This document shows positions 11,301 through 38,945 of a stretch of 64,000 nucleotides of DNA, in pieces. The DNA comes from Paludibacteraceae bacterium (GTDB lineage: Bacteria > Bacteroidota > Bacteroidia > Bacteroidales > Paludibacteraceae), in contig CAJOPG010000134.1 in the NCBI GenBank assembly GCA_905236355.1, forward strand, positions 4,595-68,594. The letters are read 5' to 3'. The translations under genes and the position numbers were made by a program. Within the stretch, counting starts at the first letter, position 1, and each line of letters begins with the position of its first letter. The notes under the pieces are model-generated. The model had not been told where the DNA came from. It made no database searches and saw only the letters and a program-made list of their open reading frames with translations.

Positions 11301-11476
11301 GCACTGCCGATATACCATAAGTTATTCCATATGATACTCGAGTTCTTAGGTGTATTCAGATTCCACTGTGCGTTTTCAACTGCATCTTCAAAATCACACT
11401 TATATGAGGATAATGCTTGCGCATTCATTCCCATAGCGAACAACAAAAGCAGCAATATGTTTGCTATTCTTTTCAT
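8315..11476 (-). CDS. Secreted 1053-aa surface protein, paralog of 11476..14598: N-terminal adhesin-like domain, Fn3-like domain, conserved central domain of unknown function, Cys-containing repeats, Ig-like region, T9SS type-A-like C-terminal sorting domain
   Basis: Signal peptide MKRIANILLLLLFAMGMNA|QA. Motifs YHTIHYLPGEYDARTY, QPRFTLDIVD, HYGYAYFTLNC, two ...GCDSV... repeats and RYQWYKNAVAV. The C-terminus MMRLVGVDGVLLLQQQLEEGQTFVSLNVSKGIYFLQLQPRNDKGRVVVIQVR resembles Por/T9SS C-terminal domains. The ATG overlaps the upstream stop by 1 nt. Confidence 0.85.
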   Translation of the reverse strand: MKRIANILLLLLFAMGMNAQALSSYKCDFEDAVENAQWNLNTPKNSSIIWNNLWYIGSAVSNGGTNSLYISSDGGVTASYAQTNQIMIAWRELTLESGNYDIVFDWRSMGTPGSYIKVCWVPESYFDDFVCGSNSTISGRKWITDNELELQGVDTLYGSSAWQHGMSSLTSDGTPHRLLFVWRTTSTAAVLLPGACIDNIQIARNNCGRPTDLEVNMHGTMATFSWHSSAERFALRYSRLDENEYQVIDDIIGSSVTVPLQHGVYNVSLQVYCQGDTSVWYAFPPVIVYDSNCFNYLDLTDDNCSYSDSTASDYTKNKYKPGKLDYGYAASYSYHTIHYLPGEYDARTYNSKDEDGNDVNPLRTIPEGEIASVRINGWRGRPASVAGKSEENARVARVTYDYVVDKADASNLILKYAVVLQVPTHDELQQPRFTLDIVDAETGEALSHCTTVDFAATLLNAKKEGWYFGTIEDGDSKVIWKDWTTIGLNLAEYDGRHIQVVLSAYGCTASVHYGYAYFTLNCIKGGIEGIQCGNNLTEQFIAPEGFKYHWYKETNPSEKLANADQRIFPVAYDDTTHYAVECIYPTDAGCSFVLTACATPRFPIPEISYSLQQKDCKNIVRLVNTSHIRTKIIKEDRYIDTEARPDYVLWDLGELGSQTYDWEPEISVPATGGRYLVSLRAAVGLCDSTQYLELVIPAISDTVVTDSIQLCAGDFYVYQSRMISSDTTIITEGKTIAGCDSVHQLKIKFVDKIEVRLDTVLAEGDTLWCDGVAMTQTDTYTYNFVSTAGCDSVLTVNLTVVPRLRVVADSVLMPCGDEKTVAIPYKVTSGTASGCKVEFSEEAIVAGWRDTVFVFTLQEGEMLLSIPANIPGWYSLQLRFESEENGTVLLPIEIMVRYPSSLLSQRWSDVIGIKSSETEYARYQWYKNAVAVDNADSPYLYVPDGLEIGAEYSVELFTISAERGVMSCPIVATAVADSEIEITPTVVSEGVPVRIRLSESAMMRLVGVDGVLLLQQQLEEGQTFVSLNVSKGIYFLQLQPRNDKGRVVVIQVR

Positions 11477-14400
11477 CAGTTATTGCGTCTTACTTTTCTA
11501 CCAAATATATCGTAGCGGATGTCATCCGTTTCAATGTATAACCGCTGATTTTCTAACACCTTCTTAACTCTCTTTGCCGAGGCATCCGAATTGTCAGGAA
11601 CAACCATATCAAACACAAACGGGCAGATTATCAGTGGTGTTCCATCTTCCAACTTTACCTCTACATAATATTCATTGGTTGCATCATTTAGTCCGTCGGC
11701 ATGTATCCAAGAACCCGTTGCACCCTCTATCGCCTTATCATTACAATACCACTGATAGGAACTGAAACGGAACCCTCCGTTATAGTTCTCGTTCAGTATG
11801 GCAAGTACATTATCCCATTTTGCCTTTACTATACTCTTAGGCAGATTAACGACAAACGGAACATACGACATCTGCGGGTCACACCATGGTGTAACAATAG
11901 CAACCTCCGCCTCCATATTGCCCGAAGGAATCCCATTCAACGGGATGGCCAATTCCATGTCCGGTTGGTCCGCCTCAAACTCATAGTCTTCCCCTATTGC
12001 CGGTATATATACCCTTATCTTATCCGCATATTCCGAGTTGCTCACCTTCAAGACAAAGGCATCTTCATCTGCACAAATAAGGGCAGAATGAAGCGATACT
12101 GCAAATTCGGGCAACGCGGCAAGATGTAAATGCACTATTGAATCACACCCCGTCTGTTCGGATGTAAAAGTAGCAATATAATCGTTCCCCGCCCTGTTTA
12201 TCTCCATCCCGCCAAACCGATAGGAACCTCCTGCGCAAATAGTATCATATAATACTGAGTCACGAATTGCCGTTACATTCAGCAACTGATGCACAATACT
12301 GTCACAACCCGTCCATGTCTTAAGTGTATCAACCATTGAATAGTTGCCTACCGCAATATTCTTGTATAAGGAGTCGGCCCATAAGAAAGACTGGCTTCCA
12401 TCTTGCAGCTCACATATCATTGTATCCGCCAAGTAGGTATCCACCTTGTCTATTGCCGGAACATTTATTGTGACATTCCGCACACTGTCTGCATACTCTT
12501 TCCCCCGCACCCAATTGCTTGCATGTAGCGAGTACACAAAGGTTTCTCCCTCATTAGAACAAGGTATATACCAACCATCATAGTTCAACTGATCGGTCTG
12601 GGTTCCATCAGGCAATTCCCATAATGCCGTCATCAGCTTCATATCATACCTGTCTTCTATCTCACCTGTAATCTGATTATGCAGTTGCACATGACTCGCA
12701 TTTCTTACAATAATCCCATTCTGGCAATTTTCAGGAACCCACTCCCACTGAATCTCAGCCTTAGGAGTATGCGGACGGGCTGTGGCTTCCATCAAATAAT
12801 CGCACTCACTGTTAGACGCATATATGATACGACAAAAATAGTTGGTCGTGTCATTTTCATTCACTTCAAACTTATAGTCGGTTGACAGAATATTTTCCGG
12901 TTCTCCTTCTTTGTACCACTCATAGTTGAACCCGTTCGGGGCGGTGAAGACATTAGTCGAAGAATCTTCCCCCCATGGGATACCCTCCATCTCGGAAGAT
13001 ATACAATTTAGCGTAAAATAGCAATAACCGTAATGACCGCCTTGATCGCAATCGTATGAAGTTATAATAATTGTCAGTGTAGAATCAATCCAATCATCCA
13101 AATTAAGTCCTACCGCGCGCCAATCTTGCCACCAATTGCCTTTCTCTTTATTTTCATACCACAAACTCATGTATTGCGGATCGTCCTGTTTCTCGGCTTT
13201 TGTCGGTGTATGGAAGTCCACCGTACCACATTTTATATCAATGGGTTCGCCTGCAGCATTTAATATATCTATTGTCAGGCGCGGTTGGTCTTGTTCTGGG
13301 TGGTCGCCGGTTTCTTGTAGCACCATAGCATACTGAATCAACAAAATCGACCCCATATTTCCGGGAACAGTATAATTAAAGGTGATACTTTCATATTGTG
13401 AACTGGTTTCCCAGTTGCCTAATCTAACAGAGCCAAATGCACCTTCGGGAACTGTTTTCAGACTGATTGGATTCCCGTTTTTATCTTTCGTTCCTATAGT
13501 TCGCACATCATATTCATCCTGCATATAATGGGTTGTATGGCGACTTTTCTCCGAAGCATACCCCCAGTCCACTTTTTCATAACCTGACGGAGACTTGCCC
13601 GTTCTTGCATTCCAAGTACCGGTTTCATAAGTCGCTCCATACATGTTCAAAGCATCAAAACAATCGGTTTCATATACATACAATGGCTTGATGTAGTAGT
13701 ATATAGTGGTGTCCGCCCCAACTATTCCCCGCATCCAGAACTCATAAGCCCCAAACTCCATCTGATACTTAGAGAATACAGAGTTGGCTGTTTCACCTTC
13801 TTCCCAAGCTCCCGTTTGTCCTGAATCCGACAGTTTACGATAACGGACTTCGTACTTATCGGCCTCGAATGCCTCCCAATACAGATTGGAATAACCTTGC
13901 AAATAATCTACATGTGCGTTCTGCGGCCATTCTGATTCCGGAGACTTGGACAATTGAATATTATCCAGCATTATACTTGAAGGGGTCGGATTTGTCTTGG
14001 CAGTATTCAACCACTCTATCAACAGGGACAAGTTACGCGTCGGATGTTGTACATTTTCCCATGTCGCGCTTATAGAAAATTTGGTTTGAATATGTTGCCA
14101 TTCTTCCTCACCCGAGAGGCGAACCACATTCTCGCCCATTATTGAAAAAGATTTGCTGTTCTGAAGAAAAGCAGGTTCTCCACTCCCACTCCGGCAGTAT
14201 AAGTCAGACCCATTTTGTGAGGTTATCAACACCCTTACATACCCTTCATCCCCATTACCCTGTCCTTTCCAGTCAAAGGCGAAGTCATAATCACCTTTTT
14301 CCAACTGCAATTCACGATAGGCTAAAACAATATTGGCAGAAGACGGATTATATACAGCGGCAGTCGCATTGGAAGATATATACATTGCGTGTGAACCATC

Positions 14401-14598
14401 GTAAGCATCCGCCGTCCCCACTAACCACAGATTGTCGGTAGGAGCACTTTGATTCAGCACCCACTGTGAATTTTCCGTATCGTCTTCAAAGCCACAAAAA
14501 TAAGGGAGGTCTGACATTGAAACAGGAGCAGCATGCGTGCAGAAATATACAGGCACACAAAGCCCCCATACTACTATCAACAGACCTAACCTTTTCAT
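11476..14598 (-). CDS. Secreted 1040-aa surface protein, paralog of 8315..11476, with the same domain order but no T9SS-like tail; ends in a different short C-terminal motif
   Basis: Signal peptide MKRLGLLIVVWGLCVPVYFCTHA. Motifs RHTTHYMQDEYDVRTI, QPRLTIDILN, HYGYCYFTLNC, two ...GCDSIVH... repeats and SYQWYCNDKAIEGATG. The C-terminus is KVLENQRLYIETDDIRYDIFGRKVRRNN. Stop TGA 11478-11476 overlaps the ATG 11476-11474 of the next gene (TGATG). Confidence 0.85.
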   Translation of the reverse strand: MKRLGLLIVVWGLCVPVYFCTHAAPVSMSDLPYFCGFEDDTENSQWVLNQSAPTDNLWLVGTADAYDGSHAMYISSNATAAVYNPSSANIVLAYRELQLEKGDYDFAFDWKGQGNGDEGYVRVLITSQNGSDLYCRSGSGEPAFLQNSKSFSIMGENVVRLSGEEEWQHIQTKFSISATWENVQHPTRNLSLLIEWLNTAKTNPTPSSIMLDNIQLSKSPESEWPQNAHVDYLQGYSNLYWEAFEADKYEVRYRKLSDSGQTGAWEEGETANSVFSKYQMEFGAYEFWMRGIVGADTTIYYYIKPLYVYETDCFDALNMYGATYETGTWNARTGKSPSGYEKVDWGYASEKSRHTTHYMQDEYDVRTIGTKDKNGNPISLKTVPEGAFGSVRLGNWETSSQYESITFNYTVPGNMGSILLIQYAMVLQETGDHPEQDQPRLTIDILNAAGEPIDIKCGTVDFHTPTKAEKQDDPQYMSLWYENKEKGNWWQDWRAVGLNLDDWIDSTLTIIITSYDCDQGGHYGYCYFTLNCISSEMEGIPWGEDSSTNVFTAPNGFNYEWYKEGEPENILSTDYKFEVNENDTTNYFCRIIYASNSECDYLMEATARPHTPKAEIQWEWVPENCQNGIIVRNASHVQLHNQITGEIEDRYDMKLMTALWELPDGTQTDQLNYDGWYIPCSNEGETFVYSLHASNWVRGKEYADSVRNVTINVPAIDKVDTYLADTMICELQDGSQSFLWADSLYKNIAVGNYSMVDTLKTWTGCDSIVHQLLNVTAIRDSVLYDTICAGGSYRFGGMEINRAGNDYIATFTSEQTGCDSIVHLHLAALPEFAVSLHSALICADEDAFVLKVSNSEYADKIRVYIPAIGEDYEFEADQPDMELAIPLNGIPSGNMEAEVAIVTPWCDPQMSYVPFVVNLPKSIVKAKWDNVLAILNENYNGGFRFSSYQWYCNDKAIEGATGSWIHADGLNDATNEYYVEVKLEDGTPLIICPFVFDMVVPDNSDASAKRVKKVLENQRLYIETDDIRYDIFGRKVRRNN

Positions 14599-37325: not shown

Positions 37326-38945
37326 TCATTTGGCGGGCAGTCCGAGGATGGTGTAGGTGATACCATCTTTCAGTAAGTACAGGCTTCCGTTTTGCAGGAT
37401 GAGGGTGCCGGAGTGAGTATCTGCAGCGCGCAAGATGTCATCTACTCCGTCCTCTTGCAACTCTTCTTCATCGTCATTGCCGGTGCTATTGTTTTCTGCG
37501 CCATCTTCGCCACTATTGCACGTGTTGTCACATTGAGCGCTAACGGTCAGGTTTTTTATTTCCCATGCGGGTGCCGAAGTTTGTGCATCGTACTTAAATG
37601 CCAAACGGACATCCTCTTTACCCATAAATTCATCGGGGATGGCAATAGTGTTGTCCTTCCACTCCCAATTGCTGCTCCCCCAATTGGTGATGTCGAGTTG
37701 GGTCCATGCGGCAGTTTGCACATCACCGTCATAATCGTCAGAGACAAACAGCATGCATTGTTGAGGCCACTCTTGCGGGTTGTTGCCATAGCCCAACGCA
37801 TGTGTAAAAGAGACAGAGCCATGCTTCTGCCCTCGGAAATCAAAGACGGGCGATACGAGCCAGTCTTCATCAGGAAGTGTTTGGTAGGCATTCATATATG
37901 CGCAGGAGTAGTTTGAATACCAGAACCAATTGGACTCACCTTTTACATTTACGACCTCCCAACTACCCAACGAGGAGGCAAAAGTCTCGGTGTATTGAAA
38001 ATTCTGACAATCATCTTTGTCATCTTCGCCTCCTTGTTCTTGCCGTTTTCCGAGGTCAAGAGCAACGAGGTAGGGGTCGTGGTCGGAATAGTCGTAACAC
38101 CTATAGCAGTTGCACGAAAGATTGTTCAAGTGCCACACTCCCGCGCCGGTTATCTGCTTCGCCATAGAAGCGTTAGCAAACACATGGTCGATGAGTTCGC
38201 CGCTATAGTTCCAGCAATAAGAATAGGCGGTGGAATCGAAACGGAGCAATTGTTCTTCATAGCCTGCATTCTGAATAAGGGCAATACACTCCTCGTCGAT
38301 CTGCGCATTCAAGTCCCCCATGATTAGGATGTCGGGGTCGGTAGCATACTGTGGTAAGGCATTAAGCAGATGATTGGCATTGTTGATTCGCTGCTGCTTG
38401 TCGGAATCTGTGGATTTGGCCTTGAAGTGATTCATGCTGAGTGTAAAACGCTCACCGGTGGAAATTTCTTCGAACACCTGAATGCGCATTGTGTTCTTGT
38501 AGTATGTCCATGTGGAAGCGGGATGACTACTGCCGTAGGGTTGCACTTTGTCCTTCCTGTAAATGAAGCCCGACTTGAGCGCATTGTCATACTCATCGGT
38601 CGCTTCGTAAATACCGTCGCTGACAGTGGCATAGAGTTCCGCCTCCGCCATCTTGTTGAGTGTATCCACCAACTGCTGTAGCACAATGGGTTTGGCTTCC
38701 ACTTCACAGAAAGCATAGATGTCGGCATCTGCTGCAAGCATCATGTCGGCTATCTTGTGCGTCTTCTCGGCAAGCCCCGCCTCGGTATTATAGTCGGGGC
38801 GTGCAGACTCTGCATAGTTGTAATAGTAGTTCTCCAGATTATTAGCCAGCACCAGAATTCTGCCATTGCCCAACTCAGGAAGAGTTGCGGCAAAAAGATT
38901 CGCAACCGAGAATATTAATATCAAAAAAGATGTTGTTTTTTTCAT
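37326..38945 (-). CDS. Secreted endonuclease/exonuclease/phosphatase-family nuclease fused to an adhesin-like beta-sandwich domain, an acidic linker and a short C-terminal motif
   Basis: 539 aa. Signal peptide MKKTTSFLILIFSVANLFA. EEP motifs ADIYAFCEVE, LIMGDLNA, YSDHDPYLV. The second domain reads QYTETFASSLGSWEVVNVKGESNWFW...DWLVSPVFDF. The linker is GEDGAENNSTGNDDEEELQEDGVDD. The C-terminus is TLILQNGSLYLLKDGITYTILGLPAK. Confidence 0.75.
   Translation of the reverse strand: MKKTTSFLILIFSVANLFAATLPELGNGRILVLANNLENYYYNYAESARPDYNTEAGLAEKTHKIADMMLAADADIYAFCEVEAKPIVLQQLVDTLNKMAEAELYATVSDGIYEATDEYDNALKSGFIYRKDKVQPYGSSHPASTWTYYKNTMRIQVFEEISTGERFTLSMNHFKAKSTDSDKQQRINNANHLLNALPQYATDPDILIMGDLNAQIDEECIALIQNAGYEEQLLRFDSTAYSYCWNYSGELIDHVFANASMAKQITGAGVWHLNNLSCNCYRCYDYSDHDPYLVALDLGKRQEQGGEDDKDDCQNFQYTETFASSLGSWEVVNVKGESNWFWYSNYSCAYMNAYQTLPDEDWLVSPVFDFRGQKHGSVSFTHALGYGNNPQEWPQQCMLFVSDDYDGDVQTAAWTQLDITNWGSSNWEWKDNTIAIPDEFMGKEDVRLAFKYDAQTSAPAWEIKNLTVSAQCDNTCNSGEDGAENNSTGNDDEEELQEDGVDDILRAADTHSGTLILQNGSLYLLKDGITYTILGLPAK

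Follow-up and report, generated by a model that had tools for sequence, protein, structure and literature searches.

Two otherwise unrelated exported proteins encoded in one stretch of a Paludibacteraceae bacterium genome carry similar short tails, raising the question of whether this tail is a sorting signal and, if so, which pathway reads it. The window, which is the whole stretch of 64,000 nucleotides analysed here (positions 4,595 to 68,594 of contig CAJOPG010000134.1), belongs to a genome of 1.86 Mb in 151 contigs that has a G+C content of 45.8% and is 90.6% complete. Re-reading of the ORFs confirmed that both genes are present as a sequence-only reading had described them, and that both products carry the motif in their tails.

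The two tails and their relatives in the same genome

The first gene (11476..14598, minus strand) encodes an exported protein of 1040 residues that ends in ...KKVLENQRLYIETDDIRYDIFGRKVRRNN. Alignment with its neighbour by BLASTP stops at residue 999, and the last 41 residues (1000–1040; 11479..11601, minus strand) comprise a linker and the tag. HMM alignment places the tag core at residues 1011–1037 (11488..11568, minus strand), where it reads KKVLENQRLYIETDDIRYDIFGRKV and is followed by RRN(N). The 24-mer quoted earlier as the C-terminus of this protein has four further residues, RRNN, behind it. The second gene (37326..38945, minus strand) encodes a secreted ExeM/NucH-type nuclease of 539 residues with a choice-of-anchor J domain (NF033681, E 1.5e-40; NF038128, E 3.4e-9; PF03372), and its product ends in ...GTLILQNGSLYLLKDGITYTILGLPAK. 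The nuclease tag core, TLILQNGSLYLLKDGITYTILGLPAK (37329..37406, minus strand), was located with both a leave-out HMM and the 45-column tag model. It is preceded, as previously noted, by an acidic linker (37407..37463, minus strand), in which the linker columns of the tag model fall on a degenerate cleavage-type motif, EDGVDDIL. The gapless match of 9 identities over 21 positions claimed for the two tails was reproduced. When 20,000 pairs of ORF tails were drawn at random from this genome, only 0.015% did as well, a chance of 1.5e-4.

Recurrence of the motif in the host genome was assessed using loose regular-expression seeds that were developed into an HMM, and later using a six-frame search with a 45-column alignment of 20 tails (A1). 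The HMM identified the motif in 27 ORFs, in every case within 0–9 residues of the stop codon, while the six-frame search with the 45-column model returned 33 places. Both window tails are among the top non-member matches of an HMM built without either window protein. In that model the nuclease tail scores E 5.8e-5 (54.7 bits with the 45-column model), while the tail of the 1040-residue protein is marginal at E 0.054 (49 bits with the 45-position model, which includes this tail). We therefore regard the latter, first noted at 11479-11562, as a divergent copy. It features NQ in place of NG and DD in place of DG, and is a degenerate tag that may no longer work.

A crude rule detected signal-peptide-like N-termini in 21 of the 27 host copies and in 72 of 97 full-length public representatives, and nearly all of the tagged ORFs in the host genome begin with signal peptides of the MKK... 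type. The N-terminal parts of the tagged proteins are mutually unrelated and include a pectinesterase, a metallophosphatase with a choice-of-anchor Q domain, the nuclease with choice-of-anchor J, a DUF4465 protein and InlB-type repeats; the cargo is diverse and typical of exported proteins. Mean identity across the tag core is 45% for residues versus 54% for bases, and 62% of the identical residues differ in codon. This divergence of codons at identical residues indicates that selection acts on the peptide, and it rules out a DNA repeat as the source of the motif.

Searches of 12 tagged proteins against Pfam-A and NCBIfam (release 20) at E ≤ 0.1–1 placed no model over the tail, including TIGR04183, PF18962 and TIGR04131. 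Above its cut-off, TIGR04183 identifies 23 ordinary long CTDs in the host genome and none on tagged ORFs. Outside the window, classical short CTDs also occur in small number in the genome, among them those of a 410-aa ORF on contig C101 and a 346-aa ORF on contig C106. One ends in ...VYTLDGRLVGNPDNLPAGMYIQDGRKLIKR, and one, of a G-V-N-I-I type, fits the GxN subgroup that PMC11969387 mentions. A crude all-against-all comparison of the two ORFs on either side of tagged genes found no recurrent neighbour, PorP-like or otherwise.

Anatomy and distribution of the tag

The tag comprises a linker with the consensus P-T-[A/G]-[V/I/L]-[E/D]-N, 8–12 variable residues and a C-terminal core with the consensus K-v-I-r-N-G-Q-l-y-I-l-R-d-G-K-t-Y-N-v-l-G-a-e-V-K. 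In 122 of 148 public representatives the pattern T-[GASP]-[ILVMF]-[EDN] lies 24–50 residues before the C-terminus, whereas approximately 2% of background windows contain it. From this threonine to the end the median length is 37 residues (range 32–43), and 137 of 159 tails finish with K or R. AlphaFold2 applied to alignment A1 predicts a flexible, poorly ordered linker (pLDDT 65–68) and, with confidence, a three-stranded antiparallel beta meander of 27 residues (pLDDT 90–94). The tails contain no hydrophobic helix. Foldseek comparison of the model with the PDB gave no match at E ≤ 0.001, a null result that is uninformative because a 27-residue meander is too small.

Among 1.84 billion public cluster representatives (50% identity) searched, 16,429 match the tag profile at E ≤ 0.001. 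The match is terminal in 149 of the best 150 of these, and the ten public relatives that were checked are nameless or annotated as 'hypothetical protein'. The sole internal match among the best 150 is in P0060 (1772 aa), where the last 13 profile columns (Y-N..G-x-E-V-like) are partially matched eight times; this indicates a repeat protein and not a terminal tag.

All seven genomes of the window's genus have the tag. Within the family, 41 of 151 genomes, spread over 14 of 33 genera, carry it, usually in 1–14 copies. Across the rest of the order it occurs in two of approximately 297 genomes, as a single copy in each, and in the rest of the phylum in none of approximately 297. Six of 26 genomes in the genus of Prevotella falsenii carry it, one with 19 copies, as do five of 41 in the family of that species; the Prevotella copies are also terminal and have the same linker. 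Complete genomes of the window's genus (2.0–2.3 Mb) contain 83, 76 and 53 tags versus 14, 16 and 22 TIGR04183 matches, respectively, so that tags outnumber classical CTDs in this genus. TIGR04183 matches number 72 and 27 in two genomes of the family that have no tag. In one congeneric genome, a tag-bearing frame (G133:C38:17498-17614) contains an in-frame TGA, which could reflect a pseudogene or a sequencing error.

A scan of the host and related genomes had been suggested as a check on the motif, and it yielded the 27–33 host ORFs and the 53–83 copies per complete congeneric genome reported above. The original proposal that the tail is a sorting tag thus gains support: the motif is recurrent, lies at the extreme C-terminus, and is carried by signal-peptide proteins with unrelated N-terminal domains.

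Exchange with T9SS signals and candidate pathways

The 1040-residue protein has a paralogue encoded immediately beside it (8315..11476). The two genes, each for a protein of about 1050 aa, span window positions 8315-14598 with a start-on-stop overlap at 11476. BLASTP aligns them at 29% identity over residues 33-999 of the protein from 11476..14598, and the alignment stops at residues 999 and 975, respectively. Beyond this junction one protein has the 41-residue linker and tag, while the other has, at the equivalent position, a 78-residue long type-A T9SS CTD (8318..8551, minus strand) that matches TIGR04183 with 20.4 bits (E 8e-4; E 0.005 in a second search). The large central region of both proteins gives no family-model match beyond a weak Ig_7. 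A giant protein at window positions 1-8113 runs past the window's start and ends, beyond it, in a good TIGR04183 CTD of 39.7 bits (contig C134:3717-3935). Of the three adjoining large surface proteins, this one therefore bears a long CTD, the next a long CTD with a weak match and the third the new tag.

A similar exchange is seen for the nuclease. Three of 30 homologues compared in the family end in the tag: the window's protein, one from another congeneric genome and one from another genus. The best full-length orthologues, from two other congeneric genomes (44% and 40% identity), end instead in a classical short CTD (...vYtItGqEV...GiYLLvnG...KivvR), and the remaining homologues carry medium or long type-A CTDs. 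Because nuclease orthologues and the large paralogue bear T9SS CTDs at the same junction, the tag can be said to sit in the slot of a T9SS signal. Three nuclease orthologues from genera g18 and g26 (L073-L075) have medium-length CTDs that open, within the last ~60 residues, with NG-R-I-Y-G-A-D-D-M-R-I-Y-N-V-L-G-I-D-V. This start is similar to the tag core, with an HMM score of only 3-4 bits, and ordinary motifs D and E come after it. These CTDs may be evolutionary intermediates, in which case the tag may have arisen from the first half of a CTD.

The host genome encodes PorU (1036 bits), an adjoining PorV (455 bits; contig C113:6272-7393) and SprA. PorU was found in 39 of the 41 tag-bearing genomes of the family sample, the two bearers with no match being 82% and 90% complete. 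When checked singly, it was also found in both tag-bearing genomes from other families of the order and in the Prevotella genome with 19 copies. This co-occurrence has no discriminating power, since PorU is near-universal in the family (144 of 151 genomes). Some related genera of the family sample (g5 and g22) have two full-length PorU genes in tandem (e.g. G038:C1:37269-44070 and G132:C15:189954-196787).

As the most economical explanation of the sequence evidence, we think it probable that the tag represents a third sequence class among the C-terminal signals of the T9SS, shorter than those already described, and that PorU cuts it at P-T|A/G. This reading is based on the PorU-type motif upstream of the core, the presence of CTDs at the same junction in orthologues and the paralogue, the encoded machinery and, more weakly, the likeness of the last strand to CTD motif B. 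A mechanism is proposed where the N-terminal signal peptide would direct the protein into the periplasm and the last ~27 residues would fold as a beta meander of three strands. This meander, instead of a 70-90-residue beta-sandwich CTD, would then be what the T9SS (SprA translocon and PorV shuttle) recognizes. The PorU sortase would cut the flexible linker at P-T | [A/G]-[V/I/L]-[E/D]-N, removing ~37 residues, and the cut cargo would be either released or joined to a surface glycolipid. The earlier statement that the tag is distinct from the T9SS CTD thus applies to its sequence, which CTD models and profiles miss, but probably not to its pathway, given the cleavage motif, the CTD swaps and the machinery. 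A further-reaching idea, which we advance only tentatively, is that the tag defines its own sorting route or recognition mode, either as T9SS export that needs only a terminal motif-B-like strand and can dispense with the supposedly essential strands of motifs D and E, or by docking onto a partner outside the T9SS; such a route could address up to ~4-5% of the proteome in some gut and rumen Bacteroidales.

The main alternative, a sorting or retention tag that acts independently of the T9SS, whose meander would dock by strand addition on an outer-membrane or surface protein or mark its cargo for vesicle packing, appears rather unlikely to us. Profile similarity to T9SS CTDs is not significant and the tag lacks motifs D and E; it is also confined to a few Bacteroidales lineages even though the T9SS is widespread, and it reaches a very high copy number in one genus (53-83 per genome), all of which would fit a separate system. 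Against this, true T9SS CTDs are replaced by the tag in orthologues and paralogues, a PorU-type cleavage motif precedes it, and the neighbourhood analysis, crude as it is, revealed no conserved partner gene. To our knowledge, moreover, no other outer-membrane route is established in Bacteroidota for proteins with type-I signal peptides.

We consider it improbable that the tail is a small functional module, such as a glycan- or cell-envelope-binding hairpin akin to cell-wall-binding repeats, that comes last by happenstance. The pattern G-x-x-Y-I...G-K-x-Y-N..G does loosely recall choline- and glucan-binding hairpin repeats, P0060 contains its eight internal partial matches, and one Foldseek match was a glucansucrase, but only at E 1.5. 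In 149 of the best 150 public representatives the tag is nevertheless a single copy at the very terminus. It matches no Pfam repeat model and no fold at E ≤ 0.001, has a cleavage-type linker before it and can be exchanged for secretion domains. A functionless remnant of a decayed or truncated CTD, or a chance likeness, is hardly credible: the degenerate copy in 11476..14598 (leave-out E 0.054) and the likeness between the core and the opening half of certain medium-length CTDs (L073-L075, with NGRIYGADDMRIYNVLGIDV) would suit it, but 16,429 clusters, 53-83 copies in complete genomes, strong peptide conservation despite codon divergence and a chance of 1.5e-4 for the pairwise match all speak against it.

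Prediction of T9SS cargo rests almost wholly on CTD models. As these miss the tag on 53-83 proteins per 2-Mb genome and in 16,429 public clusters, the secretomes of tag-bearing Bacteroidales are likely to be badly under-called. If the tag does depend on the T9SS, we know of no natural T9SS signal that would be shorter, at ~37 residues removed. It would also reveal which parts of a CTD the translocon, PorV and PorU really require for recognition, and could serve as a compact export tag for engineering. If it is T9SS-independent, it would mark an undescribed sorting system.

Comparison with known C-terminal signals

LPXTG/sortase, PEP-CTERM/exosortase and GlyGly-CTERM/rhombosortase signals resemble the tag in being recurrent C-terminal elements of diverse exported proteins with choice-of-anchor domains. 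The tag differs in being a polar beta hairpin without a membrane-spanning segment, or a basic cluster behind one, and in having no NCBIfam match. The type-B CTD (TIGR04131) is an alternative class of C-terminal T9SS signal with PorP/SprF-like partners; the tag has neither a TIGR04131 match nor a recurrent PorP-like neighbour. The type-A CTD (TIGR04183/PF18962, Por_Secre_tail) is a seven-stranded Ig-like beta sandwich of 70-90 residues with motifs B, D and E in order. The tag apparently shares its role and position, is exchanged with it in orthologues and paralogues, and occurs where the T9SS is present. It is, in contrast, a 27-residue three-stranded meander that the family models do not detect.

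The sequence-only reading knew of no described function for the motif, and we likewise found no paper on it using literal motif strings and the T9SS, short-CTD, Prevotella and rumen literature, where only a study of short CTDs in Prevotella intermedia came up. In that study, Ye et al. (2025, Open Biol; PMC11969387) described 48 'short' CTDs of 40-55 residues alongside 32 long CTDs in that species, and a PT/GI cleavage motif was found experimentally for both types. The prediction for the short CTDs was a single three-stranded sheet with motifs B, D and E and a 1-6-residue gap after B (PMC11969387). In the summary given there, motifs D (GxY) and E, the last two strands, are required in P. gingivalis, and the two functionally relevant CTD motifs named for that species are motif B, which is the beta3-beta4 loop, and the C-terminus (PMC11285876).

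Using P. falsenii as a stand-in for P. intermedia, we located the orthologue of a validated short-CTD cargo by means of the published peptide; its CTD reads T|GINGINNNETEVKTVYDLQGRRLPAEAATKKGVYIINGKKVVVK. The tag is absent from the P. falsenii genome, which contains 39 classical short CTDs. The published short CTDs, of which examples were read in P. falsenii, span 40-55 residues and feature motif B (Y..G-R), then a loop, then motif D (G-x-Y-I) and lastly motif E (G-K-K-v-v-K). The tag is ~37 residues long and has two tight N-G/D-G turns; it shows neither motif D nor motif E, and its final strand is motif-B-like.

Profile comparisons using hhalign reflect this difference. Only the linker of the tag aligns with classical short CTDs (P 0.01), and only its last strand aligns with long CTDs, onto motif B (P 0.024), while in a control the classical short CTDs matched the long CTDs of the host genome with 95.7% probability (E 1e-8). 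Using 136 ungapped cores, the best local alignment in three CTD profiles places Y-N-x-x-G-x-E-V of the tag onto the motif B pattern i-Y-d-x-x-G-x-x-v. The scores of 13.9-15.6 compare with 9 ± 2-2.7 for column shuffles, of which 0-3 in 60 reach them. The resemblance of the last strand of the tag to motif B is thus weak, but the same in all three profiles. Motifs D and E could not be recognized in the tag, with no G-x-Y following the motif-B-like strand. An alignment of LYILRDGK of the tag to IYIVNGKK of motifs D/E was also considered, and was rejected as no profile alignment supports it.

The remaining features bring the tag close to the P. intermedia short CTDs. Its linker motif is the same as the published PT/GI motif and also matches the short CTDs of P. 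falsenii. Both signals occupy the extreme C-terminus of Sec-exported cargo behind a flexible linker with a P-T/[G,A]-[I,V] motif, are predicted to fold as a three-stranded sheet, end in a basic residue and coexist with long CTDs in one genome.
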